From the sequence record MK327941.1: a stretch of 64,000 bases of DNA. One strand, written 5' to 3'. Positions within the stretch are counted from its first letter, which is position 1, and the number at the start of each line of letters is the position of its first letter. The notes under the pieces were generated by a model. It made no database searches, was not told the origin of the DNA, and worked only from the letters and a program-made list of their open reading frames with translations. Made by a program: the position numbers and the translations under genes. Below, piece after piece: positions 6,072 through 21,921 of this stretch. Source of the stretch: Escherichia phage vB_EcoM_G37-3.

Positions 6072-7246
6072 GCACTAACTTTTTTCTTTACTGCTTTCAC
6101 CTTCTGGCGAATTGCTCGAATCTCTTCGATCTCTTTTTCAGTATCTTTAACAATTTCTTTGCGATTCTGAATATCTTTATCGAGATTATCATCAAGTTTA
6201 GGCAGCATGTCAATCAAGAACTTTTTAAAGTCTTTCAGGTTTCGGATAACAGCACCTTCACCCATTACCGCCACGCCTACACCATCCGGCAGGTCGCCAA
6301 ACAGTTTAACCAGTTCAGACAGATGATCATGATCTTCTAGTGCTTCTTCCGGTTCAGATGGCAGTTCCACAAAGTAATAACGTTCATCATTGCTGATCAG
6401 GTGATACCAGCAAAGCCCAAAAGATTTAGGAGTATATTCTACACCACCAACTTCAACTGCGTCAACACTTCCGAAAGAATCTACTTTAGTTACCTTAAAT
6501 CCATGTTCCAGCGTTTTAATAATTTCAATAACATGACTGGATACGGTTTCAGTATTAAACCAATGAGGCAAATTATGTGGATTTGGCTTGTATCGTTCGC
6601 CTACTTTAAATCTCTGACCACGCTCTTGCATACGGACATATTCAACTCGCGTGATTTCCGCGAAGTATTCAAATTCGCCACCGTCAAACACAGAAGCCCA
6701 TTGATCACAAAAACGATCTGCCTTAACAGTTTCACCTTTCGCGGTGATCATGGTAGCTGATCCGTGCAATTCTTCTTCAACTAAAAAGCCATATTCGACA
6801 AAATCAACAAGTTTCATAGCTTCTTTGTGATCTGGATCATGCTCTCCCCAGAATCGCTTAAATTCTTGCAAACCTTCTGGGGTAAACGAATAACATTTAC
6901 CTTTTTCAAAGTAAGTCGGCATTGCATCCTCTTTCTTGTTCATCGCTTCGTATGCCTCTTTTGAGATGCGTTTAAAGTATTTACGCTCATTGTGCATAAT
7001 CATAGTAGCCCAATAATCAACAATATCATTAGCGGAATAAACTACATCTCCAGCTTCAATAGTAATAACATGACCGTGGTCATCTTTTTCTAATACTTTA
7101 AAGCCCTTTTCTACGATTTCAGCAACACGAATATGACCACGGCGCGAAGCATCGGTCAGAATAATTGAATAGCGAGAAAAGTCTAGAAACTCATCTTTAC
7201 CGCCTTCACGGAATGCATAGTAATGACCTTCAAAGAATTTAGCCAT
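6068..7246 (-). CDS. Hypothetical protein, KTYK/GFKV/ERKYF paralog family, three internal repeat units (392 aa)
   Basis: Repeated GFKV-x-VD-x-G and ERKYFKR motifs shared with ORFs 7303-7887 and 7884-8156. Confidence 0.55.
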   Translation of the reverse strand: MAKFFEGHYYAFREGGKDEFLDFSRYSIILTDASRRGHIRVAEIVEKGFKVLEKDDHGHVITIEAGDVVYSANDIVDYWATMIMHNERKYFKRISKEAYEAMNKKEDAMPTYFEKGKCYSFTPEGLQEFKRFWGEHDPDHKEAMKLVDFVEYGFLVEEELHGSATMITAKGETVKADRFCDQWASVFDGGEFEYFAEITRVEYVRMQERGQRFKVGERYKPNPHNLPHWFNTETVSSHVIEIIKTLEHGFKVTKVDSFGSVDAVEVGGVEYTPKSFGLCWYHLISNDERYYFVELPSEPEEALEDHDHLSELVKLFGDLPDGVGVAVMGEGAVIRNLKDFKKFLIDMLPKLDDNLDKDIQNRKEIVKDTEKEIEEIRAIRQKVKAVKKKVSA

Positions 7247-7276
7247 AATATAATCCTCTCGTTGTTTAGATGGGAG

Positions 7277-7305
7277 TATCTTACTACTCCCGTTTCATCA
7301 TGTCA
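7277..7305 (-). promoter_or_regulatory. Early promoter with palindrome around -10 (PeSL-like)
   Basis: Minus strand TTGACA, 17-nt spacer, TAAGAT within GGGAGTAG...ACTCCC inverted repeat. Confidence 0.55.
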
Positions 7306-7887
7306 AGCGTTAAATGACTTTTGGATCTCTTTCAGTTCAGCTACTTTATCGGCGCTATATTTTGCTTGATGTTCCATGCGCTTAAGCTCACCTTTGATAT
7401 AGGTTTCTAGCTTAGGTTTATTCTCAATCAGAAAATCTTTCAAGTCATCGGCATTTTTAAAGTATAGCTGATTATCAAAGCTAAAATCTTCCAGCGTCAA
7501 TGATACCAAAGAAGACTTCGCAAACAAGTTAATCAGATCTTCCAGAGATTCTTCTTTCTTAATTGGTTTCATTTCTTCAAACTGCTTTTTAGTGATGCGT
7601 TTAAAGTATTTTCGCTCGTTTGCAGCAATCAGAACAGATGCACCTTCATACTCATGAGTTTCTACCAGATACACACGCCCCATCGCATCAACAGTGAGAA
7701 CTTTAAAGCCGTTACAAAGCACGTCATACAAGAACTTATTATGTTGCGGACATCGTTTGATAAATTCTGCGACTGTTTCTGCACTACGGAAAGTATAGTA
7801 ACGACCTCGTTCAAAAACAGCGTCATTGGGTGACTTAACCGAATATACTTTGTATGTTTTCTGTACCATAATATAATCCTCTATCAT
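7303..7887 (-). CDS. Hypothetical protein, same paralog family (194 aa)
   Basis: Contains NERKYFKRITKKQFEEM and GFKVLTVD motifs; C-terminal LKDFL-x-KPKL motif as in ORF 680-1180. Confidence 0.55.
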   Translation of the reverse strand: MIEDYIMVQKTYKVYSVKSPNDAVFERGRYYTFRSAETVAEFIKRCPQHNKFLYDVLCNGFKVLTVDAMGRVYLVETHEYEGASVLIAANERKYFKRITKKQFEEMKPIKKEESLEDLINLFAKSSLVSLTLEDFSFDNQLYFKNADDLKDFLIENKPKLETYIKGELKRMEHQAKYSADKVAELKEIQKSFNA

Positions 7888-9011: not shown

Positions 9012-9820
9012 TCTACGTTAGTTACATAAACTTCTTGCGTATCAGAAGACTTACCACCTGAACGATCTAGGCAATAGGTCTTATTCAACAGGACGCAGTT
9101 TAAATCATTCCGCTTGATAAAGTCAAGGAGATGATCATTTACCTTTCCCTTATGATGCGTGACATTACTGATACCAAACTGAAAACCACGCGCCATAATC
9201 GATTCTACCCACTGATAGAATTTAATCTCTTCCTCGTCACTCCAGAACTTATTATATTCCGCAGAAGTGATAAGGTACGGCGGGTCCAAATAAACGAAAT
9301 CACCTGGCAAGATCTCGATCTCGTCATAGCGACCAGACGTAAAACTGATTCGACCGTCTTTGTTTTCTTCCTTAAAATTCAGGACACGCTCTACCGCGTT
9401 TTCGTTAAAAGTCCGGCGACCAAAATTAGCATTAAATTCTCCCTTCCTGTTATGGCGGTTAATGTTGCTAAAACTGTGCTGAATCAGAACAAACAGAGAT
9501 AGCGGATCTGGATTCTCATTATACTTCTTGCGGAATGCCATATAAGAATCTTTATCATCACGAGACAAACCATTCTCGGCAATAATCAGCTTGATCGTAG
9601 AAACCGGATCAGGACACTCGTCAATCGCTTTGTACGCGTCAATTAAGCGGTGATCATAGTCATTAGCCAGAACACCCCCTTCGACGTACAGAGACACGCT
9701 CAAGCCACCACAAAAGGCATCAACAAAGCGGTTATAGTGCTTAGGGAAATACTTACTAACACTTGGCAATAACTTTTCCTTATTGCCAGTATAGGGAATT
9801 AAACCTAATGCTTTCTTCAT
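9008..9820 (-). CDS. dam: DNA adenine methyltransferase (Dam-like, alpha class)
   Basis: N-terminal FVDAFCGGLSVSL (motif I) and FVYLDPPYLITSAEYNKFW (motif IV DPPY), collinear with T4 Dam. Confidence 0.85.
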   Translation of the reverse strand: MKKALGLIPYTGNKEKLLPSVSKYFPKHYNRFVDAFCGGLSVSLYVEGGVLANDYDHRLIDAYKAIDECPDPVSTIKLIIAENGLSRDDKDSYMAFRKKYNENPDPLSLFVLIQHSFSNINRHNRKGEFNANFGRRTFNENAVERVLNFKEENKDGRISFTSGRYDEIEILPGDFVYLDPPYLITSAEYNKFWSDEEEIKFYQWVESIMARGFQFGISNVTHHKGKVNDHLLDFIKRNDLNCVLLNKTYCLDRSGGKSSDTQEVYVTNVD

Positions 9821-12352: not shown

Positions 12353-12694
12353 TTACATTGATTGTAGAATCCTGTTTTTGATTTCATCAAGTTTTCTTCT
12401 ATGTTCAAGTCGTGCAATCTTCTTTTCATGATTTCGTTGGTTCTTGTCTTCACAGTTTACCCACTCAACAAGATCTTTACCTAACTCGAAAGCCCATTCT
12501 CGGTCTTGCTTTACGTTTTGTAGGTATGGACTTTCTGACACTCTACGAAGTGATGTTGTCGTAACAAGAATGATCCCAGGAATGGTCGGATGTTCCTTTC
12601 CATATACAATCGGACGGGAATCACTTTCGACACCTTGTAAGAAGGTGTATCCTGAATCATTCAGCAACAAATACATTTTCGGTTCGTTCATCAC
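12353..12694 (-). CDS. Hypothetical protein, small-protein family (LLLNDSGYTFLQGV...LVTT)
   Basis: Shares motif pattern with ORFs 12691-12948 and 13979-14200. Confidence 0.45.
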   Translation of the reverse strand: MMNEPKMYLLLNDSGYTFLQGVESDSRPIVYGKEHPTIPGIILVTTTSLRRVSESPYLQNVKQDREWAFELGKDLVEWVNCEDKNQRNHEKKIARLEHRRKLDEIKNRILQSM

Positions 12695-12948
12695 AGATTC
12701 CTCAACCAGTTATTAAAGCGAGCAAAGCATGATTCTTTTCGTGCTTTTTCTGCTTTACGGGCAAATCTATCCAAGAAACACCATTCATAATCATCATTGT
12801 AAATTCCCTCAAAGGAAGCTCCAGCTTTGCGTAATTCTTTGGTTGTTACCAAGAAACTATCATAGAAGGGAGTTCCTCTAACAATGATCGGAAGTTTAAC
12901 ACCTTTCAAGAAAGAATAATCGGCATCATTAATAATTTCAATTTTCAT
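12691..12948 (-). CDS. Hypothetical protein, same small-protein family
   Basis: EIINDADYSFLKGVKLPIIVRG...FLVTTKELRKAG aligns with neighbour. Confidence 0.45.
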   Translation of the reverse strand: MKIEIINDADYSFLKGVKLPIIVRGTPFYDSFLVTTKELRKAGASFEGIYNDDYEWCFLDRFARKAEKARKESCFARFNNWLRNL

Positions 12949-13193
12949 TTTACATTATCTCCATAGATCTTTCCAGCAATATCAATTTCACCAGCACGAA
13001 CATCTAGGATAAGATGCGGTAGGTGTATGCAGTTTTCCCACCCTACGCGCTTCATTTCTTCTACGGTAACGTAAGCCCACCCGTTAGCTGTAATAACGTC
13101 TACTTCAACCTTGAGAGGAAAGCAAGACTTTTCTATGTCTTCGAATCCGACAATATGTTTTGTTGTTGAATATGGAATATATCCTGTGATCAT
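12945..13193 (-). CDS. Hypothetical protein (82 aa)
   Basis: ORF in overlapping (ATGA-type) gene chain. Confidence 0.4.
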   Translation of the reverse strand: MITGYIPYSTTKHIVGFEDIEKSCFPLKVEVDVITANGWAYVTVEEMKRVGWENCIHLPHLILDVRAGEIDIAGKIYGDNVK

Positions 13194-16180: not shown

Positions 16181-16468
16181 TTCTCGATTCTCCATATTAT
16201 GCAACAGAACAAATTGTTGTGCGGCATATCCCCCCATAATAAAACACTGCCTAGAATCCATACATTTACTACGAGCATACATCTTCATAATATGGGCATG
16301 AAATTTCTGGCTGGTTTCAATGGAAGGAGATATTTTGTTTACATATACTATCATTGCGCCGTCGAAATAATCAGTAAAGTCACCAGTTGGATCATATTGA
16401 TCAGCACTGACACTTCCGACCGCAGTCAAGCATATTGCCGCTGTTAGAGTTTTACGAATAAATGACAT
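16166..16468 (-). CDS. Hypothetical secreted protein with N-terminal signal peptide
   Basis: MSFIRKTLTAAICLTAVGSVSA signal-like N-terminus; RBS GGGGGA; TATAAATA late-promoter motif upstream. Confidence 0.45.
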   Translation of the reverse strand: MSFIRKTLTAAICLTAVGSVSADQYDPTGDFTDYFDGAMIVYVNKISPSIETSQKFHAHIMKMYARSKCMDSRQCFIMGGYAAQQFVLLHNMENREHEIQ

Positions 16469-16476
16469 AAGTCATT

Positions 16477-16518
16477 CCCCCAGATTGAAAATATTCAGTT
16501 ATATTTATAATCTGGGGC
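16477..16518 (-). promoter_or_regulatory. T4 late-promoter motif TATAAATA inside an inverted repeat
   Basis: Minus-strand TATAAATA (plus 16502-16509) flanked by CCCCAGATT / AATCTGGGG arms. Confidence 0.45.
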
Positions 16519-16536
16519 TTTATTTATGATTAACTC

Positions 16537-17133
16537 TTATTTGGTAGTACCGTCAATAAAATGTTTACGGCACACAGAAACATATTTATCCTCTGCGCCG
16601 ACTTCTATTTGAGCACCATCGCGAATAACATTACCCTCTTTATCTACACGAAGGACCATTGTTGCTTTCTTGCCACAATGACAAATACCTTTCATTTCGA
16701 CCAGTTTATCAGCAAGTGCCATCAATGCCGCAGATCCTTCAAATAGATTGCCCTGAAAGTCAGTGCGAAGGCCATAGCACAGTACAGGGATATTTGCATC
16801 ATCGACAAGCGCACACAAGCCTAAAACATGCTCTTTAGTCATAAATTGGGCTTCGTCTACAAAAACTGCATCTGGACGCCATCGATCCGGTCTACGTTTA
16901 CCTAACGATTCACGATAAACCAAATCGAAAAGATCATCCGATTTAGTGAAGGTGATCGCTGGAGCACTTAGACCAATTCGGGAAACAACTTCACTTTCTG
17001 AATATCGATTATCAATCGCTGGCTTAAGAATTAATACTCGCATATCACGTTCGGTATAGTTATAAGCACTTTGTAACAGAGAAGTTGATTTGCCAGCGTT
17101 CATAGATGCATAGTAGAAATATAATTGCGCCAT
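16537..17133 (-). CDS. tk: Thymidine kinase
   Basis: ASMNAGKST P-loop, VDEAQF, C-terminal CHCGKKA zinc motif; collinear with T4 Tk. Confidence 0.9.
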   Translation of the reverse strand: MAQLYFYYASMNAGKSTSLLQSAYNYTERDMRVLILKPAIDNRYSESEVVSRIGLSAPAITFTKSDDLFDLVYRESLGKRRPDRWRPDAVFVDEAQFMTKEHVLGLCALVDDANIPVLCYGLRTDFQGNLFEGSAALMALADKLVEMKGICHCGKKATMVLRVDKEGNVIRDGAQIEVGAEDKYVSVCRKHFIDGTTK

Positions 17134-17426
17134 TAATTAATCTCCAAAAATCCAGCAAGACCTAAACCGATATAAGTCCAGATACCAATAAAAAAGATGT
17201 TAATGCTCATGACAAGGATAAACCCTTTTAGCGTTTTAGGATATCCGACCCAATATTCCCGACCATCTTCTAACCGGATCAACTTATTTCCTTGCGAGTC
17301 CATATCAACCACAACATGTTTATTTCGAGATTGCAATAGATATTGTTTTACAATCTCCACACCCGCCATAATAACAATAACGAAAATAAAAGTCCACACA
17401 ACAAGATTAATGATAGTCTCAAGCAT
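17133..17426 (-). CDS. Hypothetical membrane protein (two TM helices)
   Basis: Hydrophobic N- and C-terminal segments. Confidence 0.45.
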   Translation of the reverse strand: MLETIINLVVWTFIFVIVIMAGVEIVKQYLLQSRNKHVVVDMDSQGNKLIRLEDGREYWVGYPKTLKGFILVMSINIFFIGIWTYIGLGLAGFLEIN

Positions 17427-17661
17427 TTTCTATCACCTCCACCCAATCAGGTGTTTCCTGAAAGACTCCTTCACCTTCATGATGGTCGCAACCTTTATTG
17501 CTGCAATACATCCACCAATCCCACATTCCCCACGGTAAACGCTGCATATCGTCGTTACAGCAAGTGAATATAATAGGCCAACCACATCTAACACATCGGC
17601 AGTTTTCCTTCATGTGTGCGGTATTAGGCTTCTTCATAGATGACTCCAATATAATCGACAT
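17419..17661 (-). CDS. Hypothetical Cys-rich protein
   Basis: CRCVRCGW...CCND...CDHH cysteine/histidine cluster. Confidence 0.4.
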   Translation of the reverse strand: MSIILESSMKKPNTAHMKENCRCVRCGWPIIFTCCNDDMQRLPWGMWDWWMYCSNKGCDHHEGEGVFQETPDWVEVIENA

Positions 17662-17864
17662 TTACATTTAGGGCAATGCGGTTCTTTAATATAATACCCG
17701 TCTGTCTTTGGAACACTAACAGGAGCGGTTTTTATATTGTATTCAGTGAAACAACGAAAACAAGTTACGTTTTCTACAGACTGACGTTTCACCCAATCAC
17801 CGGAATATAGATCATTTTTATTTGTCATATTCAACCACCACAATGTTAATGTCTGGAGTAGCAA
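17634..17864 (-). CDS. Hypothetical zinc-ribbon protein
   Basis: CFRC...CPKCKC motif; start probably at internal MTNKND. Confidence 0.4.
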   Translation of the reverse strand: MLLQTLTLWWLNMTNKNDLYSGDWVKRQSVENVTCFRCFTEYNIKTAPVSVPKTDGYYIKEPHCPKCKCRLYWSHL

Positions 17865-18273
17865 TATTAATGATCTCTTCTACACATTCCCACTCAAGGC
17901 CACCGATACCGCAACCGATTTTAGGAATATAGAAAGGCTGTATAGCACCTTCAAAAACATCATTGATAGTCTCAAATCCTTTCAGGATAGCACCATATTC
18001 AGCATTTGGACCCGGTCGGAATTGGGTATAGAGATTCACCCCGCACCAGTTATAACCATTAACTTGATGCGTCCAGACACTAAACCCACCCAGCTTTTCT
18101 ACCTTACCGCGAGAAGTTTGCTTGTCAATCTCTAACGCTTGCGGGAACTCTTTCGCGATCTTTGCAGCAATACCAGCGCCCATAGTATGAAAACAATTAC
18201 AACCATGAATTAAATGACCGTTTCCTTGTTTAAACAGGGCGATGAGATCGCCCTTTACAGTATCAATAATCAT
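17818..18273 (-). CDS. Macro-domain-like protein (putative ADP-ribose binding/hydrolase)
   Basis: GDLIALF...GHLIHGCNCFHTMGAGIAAKI resembles the macro-domain N-x-x-N / GGG-V-A-x-AI signature; assignment by eye only. Confidence 0.45.
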   Translation of the reverse strand: MIIDTVKGDLIALFKQGNGHLIHGCNCFHTMGAGIAAKIAKEFPQALEIDKQTSRGKVEKLGGFSVWTHQVNGYNWCGVNLYTQFRPGPNAEYGAILKGFETINDVFEGAIQPFYIPKIGCGIGGLEWECVEEIINIATPDINIVVVEYDK

Positions 18274-18288
18274 AATATAAACCTCTCA

Positions 18289-18648
18289 TTAGTCACGGGA
18301 AGACAACCCAGCCATAAAACGGCTTAACAGTGTGTCGCGATAAGCAAAGCATAATTGCTTATCAGGGGCAGTATCACAAAGGTTGCGTTTTGTTTTAGCA
18401 AAGCTGGCAATACTCAGATCCCACGCTCGATTTTTTCGTTTTTCGTCTCGACCTTGTTTGTATGCTTCATCAAGTTCGAGCGCGATAAAATCACTACACA
18501 TGTTATCATCATCACAGAAAGTTTTAATGATCTTTTTGTTGATCTCAAATCCTTTGTATTCGAACTTTGGATAAGGGCGCTCATTACTAGCAAGCGCACC
18601 AGCAGAGAACATCATAGCAATCATAGCAATTATTGTCAACTTTTTCAT
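18289..18648 (-). CDS. Hypothetical periplasmic/secreted protein
   Basis: N-terminal MKKLTIIAMIAMMFSAGALA signal peptide. Confidence 0.45.
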   Translation of the reverse strand: MKKLTIIAMIAMMFSAGALASNERPYPKFEYKGFEINKKIIKTFCDDDNMCSDFIALELDEAYKQGRDEKRKNRAWDLSIASFAKTKRNLCDTAPDKQLCFAYRDTLLSRFMAGLSSRD

Positions 18649-18655
18649 ATATTCC

Positions 18656-19246
18656 TCAATAGCGTTTAGTCTTAAGAATGCCTTTACTCTTTAGATGGTT
18701 AGCCTTTTTTAGTACGTCATCAGCATAACCTAATCCGGCTTTATAGTTCCATCCAGCATTGTAAGAAGCTAGCGCGAGTCGGATATTACCGTTTCGAACA
18801 TCCAGCCAGTATGCTAACTCATCCATCGCGTAGAATGCAGAAACCTCGCGATTCATGATAAAGTTGATAGTCTGGCGATCACTCATTTTAACACCGCGCT
18901 TTGCATTTTTCGCTTTCACCGTTTTAAGGTAATTTTGAAATAATCCATAAGCATGATGATTTTTCTTTGGTGCTAAGTTTGCACCCGCGCTTGATTCTTG
19001 CCATGCGATACCCGCCAGGATGTGACCTAAACCCTTTCCGTTATAGCGAATATTCGGATGGTACTTTTTCAACTTACCGCTTTTCTCAAATTGCTCGCCG
19101 TATTGATAGGCGAAATGTAAATTATCTAGTTGGTGTGGTGTAAAGTTGTCTATCGGCGCTTTTTTGATCGGTGCGCTAGTCGATGCGTGTGTAGCACCAA
19201 CGGCTAGTGACAGACTCAATACTATCGCTTTTAGAACTTTTAACAT
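18656..19246 (-). CDS. Putative lytic transglycosylase-like protein with signal peptide
   Basis: Signal peptide then AWQESSAG...YGLFQ...SYNAGW motifs resembling the SLT/lysozyme-like fold. Confidence 0.55.
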   Translation of the reverse strand: MLKVLKAIVLSLSLAVGATHASTSAPIKKAPIDNFTPHQLDNLHFAYQYGEQFEKSGKLKKYHPNIRYNGKGLGHILAGIAWQESSAGANLAPKKNHHAYGLFQNYLKTVKAKNAKRGVKMSDRQTINFIMNREVSAFYAMDELAYWLDVRNGNIRLALASYNAGWNYKAGLGYADDVLKKANHLKSKGILKTKRY

Positions 19247-19281
19247 TAATTTCTCCTGTTTGGCTTAACTTTCTGATTCCA

Positions 19282-19308
19282 TAATATAGCCCTATCACCA
19301 GAAAGTCA
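19282..19308 (-). promoter_or_regulatory. Putative early sigma70 promoter for regB
   Basis: Minus strand TTGACT, 15-nt spacer, TATATT, RBS AGGAGA before ATG. Confidence 0.4.
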
Positions 19309-19332
19309 AGCATTATTTTTAACCAATTTCCA

Positions 19333-19755
19333 TTATTGGTCTACCTTCAAAACAACCGCCGACATTTTACCCGCCAGTCGTTTTGGATTCTCTATAATCA
19401 TTCGGCAGCATAGACCGTGATATGGCTTACCCTCTTCGATTAGATCTACTGTCATCCCGATCCACATGTTACCGTCAGTAATTTCTAATCGATTCGGTCG
19501 GTCTTCCATTTTCAGGAAGTCGAAGATCTCCGGCAAACGAGTTTCTATCTTATTGAATAGTTCCATTGTCTTATGTTCATCGATATGACGATCGGTTAGA
19601 CGGTCGATCATATGCGGACTAAAGCGAATGAAAATATACTCACCATAACCATCATTCAAGCACTTTTCTTTGATCTTCGCATTGGTTTTGCGCATTTCGG
19701 TTTCGAAGAATCTACGCAGCTTACTACGGCGAACATGTACGTTAATTGTTTCCAT
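19333..19755 (-). CDS. regB: Endoribonuclease RegB
   Basis: METINVHVRRSKLRRFFETEMRK...RLEITDGNMW...LCCRMIIENPKRLAGK matches T4 RegB; track ORF extends upstream to 19827. Confidence 0.8.
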   Translation of the reverse strand: METINVHVRRSKLRRFFETEMRKTNAKIKEKCLNDGYGEYIFIRFSPHMIDRLTDRHIDEHKTMELFNKIETRLPEIFDFLKMEDRPNRLEITDGNMWIGMTVDLIEEGKPYHGLCCRMIIENPKRLAGKMSAVVLKVDQ

Positions 19756-19759
19756 TTTA

Positions 19760-20095
19760 TTATCCTTTCTTAAACAAATTGCGAATCCAGTATACAAACG
19801 GGATTTCTTTAAACTTGAACTTGTCAATAGTTAATTCTTTAGTAGCAAGATGAATACCATAAGCATCATGTGTCACGATATGCCATTTTCTATAGTCCAA
19901 ATGTGAACAACCGTCTGGATCTAGGTTAATAAGAGTTTCTCGCTCACTAGGATTATTTTTCCACAATTTTGTAATAGGATCGCACATAATTCGACCTAGC
20001 GTACCATGAATAATCTCACAACGGTAAAGTTTTCCAGCAGTGAGATAGGCGCACCCGTCATAGTCTGTATAAACAAACACTTCTTTAACACTCAT
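19760..20095 (-). CDS. Hypothetical protein, GC(S/A)HLD small-protein family
   Basis: Probable start MSVKEVFVYTDYDGCAYL with RBS and PeSL-type promoter; motif DPDGCSHLD. Confidence 0.45.
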   Translation of the reverse strand: MSVKEVFVYTDYDGCAYLTAGKLYRCEIIHGTLGRIMCDPITKLWKNNPSERETLINLDPDGCSHLDYRKWHIVTHDAYGIHLATKELTIDKFKFKEIPFVYWIRNLFKKG

Positions 20096-20123
20096 TTTAA
20101 TACTCCTTTGTTTCGATGGGGGT

Positions 20124-20152
20124 ATATTACTACCCCCGTTTTGTTGTGTCAA
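20124..20152 (-). promoter_or_regulatory. Early promoter with palindrome around -10 (PeSL-like)
   Basis: Minus strand TTGACA, 17-nt spacer, TAATAT within GGGGGTAG...ACCCCC inverted repeat. Confidence 0.55.
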
Positions 20153-20413
20153 CTACTTTTTCAAGATTTTTTTAATTGCGTTCCAAAGACCTTTATTCTC
20201 AGGTTGTTTTGGTTCTTCGATCAGTGTCCAGGTTCGACCGTCTAAGTGTGCACAATTTTTAAGACAAATAAAAATCTGGTGTCCTTTATCATCACGGATA
20301 TAACCACTATTCGCAAATCTTTCATGTGGTGTATATTCATACAGTGTATTTGGTGTAATATACTTGCGGTTACTATAAGGTGTCATCACATACATCATGG
20401 TACTAACTCCCAT
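20153..20413 (-). CDS. Hypothetical protein, GC(S/A)HLD family
   Basis: Motif NCAHLDGRTW shared with neighbours. Confidence 0.4.
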   Translation of the reverse strand: MGVSTMMYVMTPYSNRKYITPNTLYEYTPHERFANSGYIRDDKGHQIFICLKNCAHLDGRTWTLIEEPKQPENKGLWNAIKKILKK

Positions 20414-20589
20414 TTATCACCGCGAAGATGAGAACATCCACCATCAAGAAGGATCGTAATACGAAACCCCGCATCATCTTCAATATACCCGATAGTCGGT
20501 GGATTTTCGTCGTCTCGTGTCGGGGTAAAATCATACATCTTTCCGGGCGTAATATCTTGTCCTTTATTACTATTGGTATAAACTTGCAT
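20395..20589 (-). CDS. Hypothetical protein, GC(S/A)HLD family
   Basis: Motif DGGCSHLRGDKW shared with neighbours. Confidence 0.4.
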   Translation of the reverse strand: MQVYTNSNKGQDITPGKMYDFTPTRDDENPPTIGYIEDDAGFRITILLDGGCSHLRGDKWELVP

Positions 20590-20610: not shown

Positions 20611-21309
20611 CTAACCACGGGTATAGTGTTCCAGAACAACGGTCAGATGAATATATTCTAATAAATCCTTCCAAAAGTCAACATCTGGTTCTTCCGGCAT
20701 ACCGTTTTTCTTTGCCTCTTCACGCGCGAGTTTAACACGCTCGTAGAGATCTTTCAATTCTTCCCGCACATTATCAAAGGTTCTTTCTCCTAACTTACAC
20801 GCTAAAATAGAAGAACGTCGCGCGAGCGGGAATTGTAGATCACCAGTTTGATAGATTTCAAGTAGCTGATAACCAACACGCAGAGCATGAGAAAGATCTT
20901 TCCAGTTACTGAAATACTTTTCAGATTTTGCTACCTGCTTTTTGAGATAACCAGACAAACCCCACATCCCAACATGATAGAATTTATCGCGATGTGTTCT
21001 GATGTATTCCCATTCTCTGGAGGATTCAATCAACATGTTACTAGGCGCGTGCACCATGTCAATAGCGCCGATATCGCCTTTACATGCCAGATTGATAAAC
21101 CGTTTTAGACTGAACATATTAACGTCAATATCGTCTTTGGTGTTCTTGATACCTTGACCGCTAGTGCTTTGGTCATAGTGTTCTTTCATCGATCCTAAGA
21201 TAATTTCTTTCGCAGTCGGAACAAAGATACCACGATAATCTTTATCTGAATTTTCAGTATCAAGGCCGTATAAGTGAGATCCGAAGACCATTTTAACCAT
21301 AGTATGCAT
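20611..21309 (-). CDS. Putative nucleotidyltransferase-fold protein
   Basis: N-terminal FGSHLYGLDTENSDKDYRGIF fits the G-S-x9-D-x-D nucleotidyltransferase signature. Confidence 0.45.
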   Translation of the reverse strand: MHTMVKMVFGSHLYGLDTENSDKDYRGIFVPTAKEIILGSMKEHYDQSTSGQGIKNTKDDIDVNMFSLKRFINLACKGDIGAIDMVHAPSNMLIESSREWEYIRTHRDKFYHVGMWGLSGYLKKQVAKSEKYFSNWKDLSHALRVGYQLLEIYQTGDLQFPLARRSSILACKLGERTFDNVREELKDLYERVKLAREEAKKNGMPEEPDVDFWKDLLEYIHLTVVLEHYTRG

Positions 21310-21327: not shown

Positions 21328-21921
21328 TTAAACGTATTCAGCGACAACATTGTGTTTAAAATTACCACTTCTTTTTGGATTTGGATTTTTCAATCGACTA
21401 TGTATTAAATTTTTGTTATATCCGGTTGCTTTAGACGCTTCTCCAATACTTTGATAAACAACACCATCAACACGAATCGGACGAGACTTATTAAACAGTT
21501 TATTCAATCCGGTATCATATGCATGGTTTTGGTTTTCTTGTCTTGTTGCGATCTCAAGATTCCAAACACAATTACAAGATTTTACCCCACTTTTATGATT
21601 AATTTCAAGCCCTTCACAATCACCTATAAAGTGTTCAGCGACTAGTCTATGAATATAGCGATATTTCTTAGTTTCCCCGTCATGCAAGCATACATTATAA
21701 TAACCATCACCAGCGCGTTTAGGTCGGAGTAGTTTACCTTTAACACGTTTTATAGTAGGGAACTCACCAAATTGATTTCGCTGGATAAAAGGAATCTCTC
21801 GGTCAAGTGAACGGATTCGACCATAGTTAGATACTTGATAAAACCCCCCATAGCCCTTAATCTGCTTCCATATCTCGGGGATTTCAACACCATCAATAAC
21901 AACAAGTTTAAGTTCTTCCAT
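21328..21921 (-). CDS. HNH homing endonuclease (Mob-like)
   Basis: YQVSNYGRIRS (NUMOD4-like) and HRLVAEHFIGDCEGLEINHKSGVKSCNCVWNLE (HNH) motifs. Confidence 0.75.
   Translation of the reverse strand: MEELKLVVIDGVEIPEIWKQIKGYGGFYQVSNYGRIRSLDREIPFIQRNQFGEFPTIKRVKGKLLRPKRAGDGYYNVCLHDGETKKYRYIHRLVAEHFIGDCEGLEINHKSGVKSCNCVWNLEIATRQENQNHAYDTGLNKLFNKSRPIRVDGVVYQSIGEASKATGYNKNLIHSRLKNPNPKRSGNFKHNVVAEYV

Follow-up and report, generated by a model that had tools for sequence, protein, structure and literature searches.

Phage macrodomains are common, occurring in 41% of myoviruses in the viral survey of Iyer et al. 2022 (PMC9503650), and almost none of them has been characterized biochemically. When a T4 transposon library was screened on a DarTG2 host, tk.4 was the single significant HIDEN-SEQ match, and a clean tk.4 knock-out of T4 was sensitized to DarTG2 (preprint, bioRxiv 10.1101/2025.11.20.689424). 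In the same 2025 preprint, tk.4 was renamed adfM (anti-DarT factor Macrodomain), a similarity to the DarG of Mycobacterium tuberculosis was noted, and enzymatic removal of ADP-ribose from DNA by T4 Tk.4 was described with the words "seems likely" (bioRxiv 10.1101/2025.11.20.689424). The Tk.4 protein was also detected in the T2 infection proteome. Searches of the full-text literature found no published biochemistry of Tk.4-type proteins, and the available reports were the HIDEN-SEQ genetics, a mention in T2 RIL-seq/proteome work, and genome papers.

Two other macrodomains act on the DNA modification made by DarT enzymes without being part of a DarTG pair. SCO6735 from Streptomyces coelicolor (PDB 5E3B), a Gln-type, ALC1/TARG1-like macrodomain, takes thymidine-linked ADP-ribose off DNA and protects cells from DarT in its wild-type form. 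Its activity was abolished by the Q85A substitution, and a water-activated, lysine-independent mechanism was proposed (PMC9411070). Chimallivirus AdfM (PhiKZ gp104), which is imported into the phage nucleus, removes DarT2 marks from DNA (PMC13309987).

The window analyzed here, a stretch of 64,000 nucleotides of Escherichia phage vB_EcoM_G37-3 (MK327941.1), belongs to a Krischvirus (RB49/JSE-like). Its region 16400-19900 showed 99.9% identity to Escherichia phage vB_EcoM_G5211 and about 98% identity to RB49, JSE, and GEC-3S. The gene of interest and the features around it are as follows.

17818..18273, minus strand: tk.4/adfM ortholog, 151 aa, single-domain macrodomain (ORF list, Pfam, AF2, Foldseek, comparison with T4 and JSE)
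18281..18286, minus strand: Shine-Dalgarno sequence GAGAGG, 7 nt 5′ of the tk.4 ATG (sequence read directly)
18289..18648, minus strand: upstream gene vs, 119 aa, which stops 15 nt ahead of tk.4
17634..17828, minus strand: small gene on the 3′ side of tk.4, 64 aa, with the phage zinc-binding domain PF23903 (JSE annotation mapped; Pfam E 1.8e-23)
17419-17661, minus strand: second small zinc-binding gene, PF23895 (Pfam E 5.6e-34)
19281..19309, minus strand: candidate sigma-70-type early promoter TTGACT-17-TATTAT, 10/12, located 5′ of vs.1 (consensus scan)

The ORF starts with ATG at 18273 and stops with TAA at 17818-17820 on the minus strand, as read from the sequence, and its translation in the ORF list includes GDLIALFKQGNGHLIHGCNCFHTMGAGIAAKI. 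The preliminary description had reported a 151-aa ORF in the tk-regB region carrying the stretch GDLIALF...GHLIHGCNCFHTMGAGIAAKI. The ORF with its start codon, stop codon, Shine-Dalgarno sequence, and quoted motif was found as described, between tk (16537-17133) and regB (19333-19755). The Shine-Dalgarno sequence lies inside the 15-nt gap behind the vs stop codon, and the last 11 nt of tk.4 are shared with the PF23903 gene, whose ATG is at 17828. With this short gap on one side and the overlap on the other, tk.4 belongs to a tightly packed minus-strand gene block, and the 11-nt overlap suggests that the PF23903 gene is translationally coupled to tk.4. By profile, two of the neighboring genes code for small proteins with phage zinc-binding domains, and the others for RegB, a Vs.1 that contains an SLT domain, and an RlaP/NrdC.11 nucleotidyltransferase. 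The two zinc-binding genes (17419-17661 and 17634-17828) follow one another with an overlap just 3′ of tk.4, and their products belong to different "phage zinc binding domain" families. The weak promoter candidate at 19281..19309 could drive vs.1-vs-tk.4-...-tk. Promoter-like sites in the region were not above shuffles (18 versus 13.9 ± 4.8 by consensus scan), and the promoter/terminator scan of the region likewise gave no excess over shuffles; a transcription unit containing tk.4 is therefore only suggested.

The gene order tk...tk.4-vs-vs.1-regB is common to T4, JSE, and the window; in JSE, tk is followed by three small ORFs, tk.4, vs, vs.1, and regB. The product of ORF 17818-18273 aligned with T4 Tk.4 over 150 of its 151 residues (44% identity, E 9e-45), and the motifs HGCNCFHTMG.G and NLYTQF.PGPN were shared between the two proteins. 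The ORF is thus the syntenic ortholog of T4 tk.4. The identity to T4 Tk.4 is, however, just 44%, and the anti-DarTG2 phenotype is known from T4 alone. The same gene of JSE is annotated as "tk.4, phosphatase; Tk.4; contains A1pp phosphatase motif", and the T4 RefSeq record carries the same note. The novelty implied in the preliminary description was accordingly not borne out: the assignment to the macrodomains is correct but already known, since the RefSeq entries carry the A1pp/macro label and the role was described in the 2025 preprint. What is added here is a Gln-type, SCO6735-like site and the distinction of this protein from DarG and chimallivirus AdfM.

The macro-domain assignment, made by eye in the preliminary description, was upheld by Pfam, PADLOC, NCBIfam, and PDB profile searches and by a confident structure model. 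Pfam Macro (PF01661) matched over profile positions 1-118 of 118 with E 1.3e-6 and 28.7 bits, above the curated gathering score of 22 bits. DarG models were the sole matches in the PADLOC and NCBIfam libraries. The PADLOC model gave E 3.9e-14 over model positions 3-141 of 329, and NCBIfam antitoxin_DarG (NF048014), which has a cut-off of 250 bits, was matched with 48.4 bits over positions 2-141 of its 338; both matches were confined to the macrodomain part. In a single-sequence search, the nearest solved relative was the M. tuberculosis DarG macrodomain (5M3I, E 4.8e-8), and the other nearest solved relatives were BT1257, SCO6735, TARG1/OARD1, and Poa1p. When a profile of 43 family sequences was searched against the PDB, TARG1 was matched with E 2.9e-15, and TARG1, BT1257, DarG, SCO6735, and Poa1p all fell between E 1e-11 and 1e-15. 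The profile scores therefore did not set the tk.4 family closer to DarG or SCO6735 than to the other three.

The AlphaFold2 model, calculated from an alignment of 42 homologs with the T4 row left out, had a pLDDT of 95.6 and a pTM of 0.90 and showed an alternating strand/helix pattern. With this predicted model as the query, Foldseek returned 203 PDB matches at E<=0.001, with a probability of 1.00 on TARG1, DarG, Poa1p, and SCO6735. The TM values for TARG1, Thermus DarG, and M. tuberculosis DarG were 0.78, 0.80, and 0.78, respectively. The top 50 matches were macrodomains, except for a set of OSH55-series entries, which carry the description of computationally designed serine hydrolases. The model and the Foldseek matches agree on a three-layer alpha/beta/alpha macro fold. 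Two glycine-rich loops, MGAGIA (residues 31-36) and PKIGCGIGG (residues 117-125), align with the loops of TARG1, DarG, and SCO6735, are nearly invariant, and are predicted to hold the ADP-ribose diphosphate. The tk.4 product is a genuine macro-domain protein, and its fold is not in doubt.

Three segments of the gene encode the predicted active site.

18166..18207, minus strand: codons H23-A36 (HGCNCFHTMGAGIA), predicted first ADP-ribose-binding loop (alignments)
18022..18036, minus strand: codons N80-Q84 (NLYTQ), with the Q84 codon CAA read from the sequence (alignments)
17899..17925, minus strand: codons P117-G125 (PKIGCGIGG), predicted second glycine-rich phosphate-binding loop (alignment)

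Q84 aligned with the catalytic Lys of DarG (K80), TARG1 (K84), and PhiKZ AdfM (K78), and with Gln85 of SCO6735 and the Gln of BT1257. H23 aligned with H24 of SCO6735 and H23 of Poa1p, and N26 with N22 of DarG and N27 of SCO6735. The SCO6735 numbering was verified on the 5E3B chain. G124 took the place of the catalytic D125 of TARG1. Conservation was evaluated in an alignment of the query and 119 homologs (120 sequences). N26, G34, A36, N80, and Y82 were kept in all 120 sequences, P117, G120, and G122 in 119, Q84 in 118, and H23 in 116. Q84 was also kept in 80 of the 80 homologs from bacterial genomes, although this residue was absent from the search pattern. The equivalences of Q84, H23, and N26, combined with the role of Q85 in SCO6735, show that the catalytic constellation of the Tk.4 family is of the SCO6735 type and not of the DarG type. 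This Gln-for-Lys site singles out Q84, H23, and N26 as the residues of interest and shows DarG to be the wrong mechanistic template.

SCO6735 resembles the tk.4 product in having Gln at the catalytic-Lys position together with the His and Asn of loop 1, and, like the Tk.4 family, it is a stand-alone protein that is not paired with darT. The resemblance has limits: identity is about 22%, SCO6735 ranked 43rd in the Foldseek search, and its mobile loop after the Gln is 5 residues longer and bears two lysines, K89 and K94, that matter for activity on DNA by aiding DNA binding (PMC9411070). The tk.4 product has a corresponding 5-residue gap after Q84-F85 and no lysine in RPGPNAEY. The DarG2 macrodomains (M. 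tuberculosis 5M3I and T. aquaticus 5M31/5M3E) superposed with TM 0.78–0.80, and the asparagine of their N-C motif is kept in the tk.4 product. However, the catalytic K80 of the DarG FPTK motif is replaced by Q84 (NLYTQ), and the C-terminal DarT-binding domain of DarG is absent from the 151-aa protein. No darT was found beside tk.4, the neighbors of which are vs, vs.1, regB, the two genes for zinc-binding small proteins, and tk. A truncated DarG, lacking the C-terminal domain, the catalytic Lys, and a darT neighbor, was rejected as an identity of this protein.

Among the other solved relatives, human TARG1/OARD1 (4J5R) is a top neighbor by fold and profile, but its K84/D125 dyad corresponds to Q84/G124 in the tk.4 product. 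Bacteroides BT1257 (2FG1), also a top neighbor by fold and profile, has the Gln as in the tk.4 product. Yeast Poa1p (6LFR) has an HxCNC motif in common with the Tk.4 family; aligned via the T4 ortholog, H23 and T30 correspond to H23 and S30 of Poa1p, the catalytic His23/Ser30 of its HxCNC...S motif. Elsewhere the Poa1p site departs from that of the Tk.4 family, with Ser at the Gln position, and Poa1p is about 30 residues longer.

Chimallivirus AdfM, likewise an orphan macrodomain encoded by a phage, shares its name and its proposed function with the tk.4 product. PhiKZ gp104 showed 26% identity with an hhalign probability of 97%, and it has a DarG-like site (N23 and K78), with K78 of its FPTK motif opposite Q84. 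Membership of the two proteins in one family was rejected on the basis of the 26% identity and the Lys in place of Gln, and PhiKZ gp104 represents a separate lineage. The name AdfM was given in papers of 2025-2026 to both PhiKZ gp104 (12518-13006) and the product of T4 tk.4 (6923-7390), which are 26% identical, and this name collision could mislead annotation transfer.

Homologs of Tk.4 were detected by tblastn in 2,731 of 50,697 phage records. The Krischvirus protein was about 68% identical to the Vequintavirus homologs (AlexBoehm and EduardKellenberger) and 44–50% identical to those of Tequatrovirus and Mosigvirus (T4-like). This greater closeness to Vequintavirus than to the T4-like phages suggests lateral exchange of tk.4 between unrelated coliphage groups. 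The homolog of Escherichia phage AlexBoehm (4001-4459) is situated amid unannotated small ORFs, without tk/vs synteny.

In bacteria, a scan of one genome per species gave at least 511 confirmed loci. Carriers include Ruegeria, Roseovarius, Desulfobacteraceae, Shewanella, and Pseudoalteromonas, with about 40–47% identity, as close as T4. The bacterial proteins were 140–159 aa long in 54 of 80 loci and shorter than 180 aa in 65 of 80. No conserved partner gene was found around the 80 homologs, since no neighbor family occurred in more than 9 loci, and no link to darT was found in these 80 loci. The neighbor families that recurred (M23 peptidase, ABC ATPase, ArgC, and SecA) represent clade-level housekeeping synteny. 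As no neighbor family beyond these housekeeping genes is shared, the Tk.4 family in bacteria is a stand-alone macrodomain and not a remnant of a darTG operon.

From these results we propose, as the reading that we moderately favor, that the tk.4 product acts as a stand-alone macrodomain hydrolase and, by means of Q84, H23, N26, and an activated water, releases the ADP-ribose that DarT2 has attached to thymidines of phage ssDNA. Krischvirus Tk.4 would probably be made before DNA replication. DarT2 of a host DarTG2 toxin-antitoxin system ADP-ribosylates thymidines in ssDNA and thereby blocks replication. The cleft formed by loop 1 (H23-A36) and loop 2 (P117-G125) would bind the ADP-ribose, and the macrodomain would hydrolyze the thymidine-ribose bond, so that replicating phage DNA would be protected from DarTG2. 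Because Q84 stands in place of Lys and, as in SCO6735, H23 and N26 are retained, catalysis would probably proceed through an activated water, with the ribose held in position by the Gln, and not through a lysine nucleophile. By analogy with T4 tk.4, the Krischvirus ortholog may be expected to protect from DarTG2. Likewise, the Gln/water mechanism attributed to Tk.4 and an enzymatic action on thymidine-linked ADP-ribose on DNA are drawn by analogy with SCO6735 and are presumed here. Because both the lysine-bearing loop of SCO6735 and the catalytic Lys of DarG are absent, activity on DNA cannot be assumed from homology.

The annotation of the gene points to a different substrate. PHROG 335 "phosphatase" (E 1e-61) and the RefSeq note "contains A1pp phosphatase motif" would fit a hydrolase of small molecules, with either ADP-ribose-1″-phosphate (as for Poa1p) or O-acetyl-ADP-ribose as its substrate, that removes by-products of RNA repair or of sirtuin reactions. 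Poa1p structures were among the top fold matches, HxCNC...G aligned with Poa1p, in which H23 and S30 are the residues mutated in 6lfs and 6lft, and an RlaP-type RNA-repair nucleotidyltransferase is encoded 2.3 kb away. We nevertheless regard this function as unlikely, since the "phosphatase" label derives from homology alone, Poa1p has Ser where the Tk.4 family has a near-invariant Gln, and the sole known phenotype of an ortholog is specific to DarTG2. Moreover, T4-type RNA repair (Pnk/Rnl) is not known to yield Appr>p. The fold and profile data also bear on a reversal of ADP-ribosylation on protein or RNA instead of DNA, by which marks set by other host ART defenses or toxins would be removed, or phage Alt/Mod-type enzymes would be tuned through removal of their marks. 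TARG1 is the best structural and profile match. Its substrates and those of SCO6735 include Glu/Asp-ADPr on protein and phosphate-linked ADPr of RNA and DNA (PMC9411070 among the sources), and the Krischvirus JSE encodes a ModB ART. The dyad K84/D125 of TARG1 is, however, replaced by Q84/G124, and such a role has no supporting phenotype. Arginine is the residue modified by T4-type ARTs (PMC8120803). The macrodomain class to which Tk.4 belongs is not known to cleave this linkage. We regard this role, too, as unlikely, and as a little less probable than a small-molecule function.

Protection also need not be enzymatic, because catalytically dead SCO6735, DarG, and TARG1 all still inhibit DarT by binding (PMC9411070). 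The tk.4 product might accordingly bind and inhibit DarT2 as an antitoxin mimic, as the phage proteins AdfA and AdfB do in inhibiting DarT directly, or it might sequester ADP-ribose immune signals such as Thoeris products, given that His-ADPR is the ligand of the macrodomain of ThsA in type II Thoeris. Against this, the dedicated DarT-binding domain of DarG is missing and the bacterial homologs have no DarT partner. The near-invariance of the cleft (H23, N26, Q84, and both Gly loops) in phages and in bacteria without DarT fits an enzyme better and argues for catalysis over toxin-specific binding, and we consider a non-catalytic mode of protection the most improbable of these alternatives. The preliminary description had suggested that the protein counters host ADP-ribosyltransferase toxins or NAD-derived defense signals, or regulates phage ADP-ribosyltransferases, and had proposed infecting hosts carrying DarTG with a knock-out phage. 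That infection has been carried out by others in T4, where sensitization of the clean tk.4 knock-out to DarTG2 speaks for the first of these roles (bioRxiv 10.1101/2025.11.20.689424), whereas the two others found no support.

Extended to the whole family, the hydrolase reading favored above becomes more tentative: Tk.4 proteins may constitute a distinct, very widespread, Gln-type stand-alone clade that removes thymidine-linked ADP-ribose in a lysine-independent, water-activated, SCO6735-like manner. If so, phages would have recruited a general bacterial "genome-protector" hydrolase and not a truncated DarG antitoxin, and Tk.4 would represent a second, mechanistically different anti-DarT2 route beside the Lys-type chimallivirus AdfM. 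Tk.4-type removal would then perhaps extend to other ADP-ribose on nucleic acid or protein, and the substrate range might be wider, covering other ART-based defenses. As an anti-DarTG2 factor, Tk.4 helps predict which phages escape DarTG hosts, which is relevant to host range in phage therapy.

Several other observations were made on this region and its relatives. Phage JSE has, within its first 44 kb, a gene for a modB-type RNA polymerase ADP-ribosyltransferase (9296-9799); with the macrodomain added, these Krischvirus phages possess a writer of ADP-ribose as well as a potential eraser. The product of vs (18289-18648, minus strand), which is 27% identical to T4 Vs, opens with a signal-peptide-like segment, MKKLTIIAMIAMMFSAGALA, and T4 Vs likewise opens with MTKILVLCIGLISFSASA. 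Such a start is odd for Vs, a "valyl-tRNA synthetase modifier" said to act on a cytoplasmic synthetase. Of all T4 genes, vs showed the strongest depletion in minimal medium (HIDEN-SEQ preprint, bioRxiv 10.1101/2025.11.20.689424).

Three adjacent minus-strand ORFs located 5′ of regB (19760-20152, 20153-20413, and 20395-20589) appear paralog-like. No Pfam match was obtained for those of these small ORFs that were scanned, and their translations have the motif GYI.DD.G..I.I.L...C(A/S)HL.G..W in common. Beyond them on the minus strand, 20611-21309 and 21328-21921 comprise the NrdC.11-like nucleotidyltransferase gene, with a match to "RNA repair pathway DNA polymerase beta family" (RlaP) at E 3.4e-14, and an adjoining ORF annotated as a homing endonuclease in JSE.
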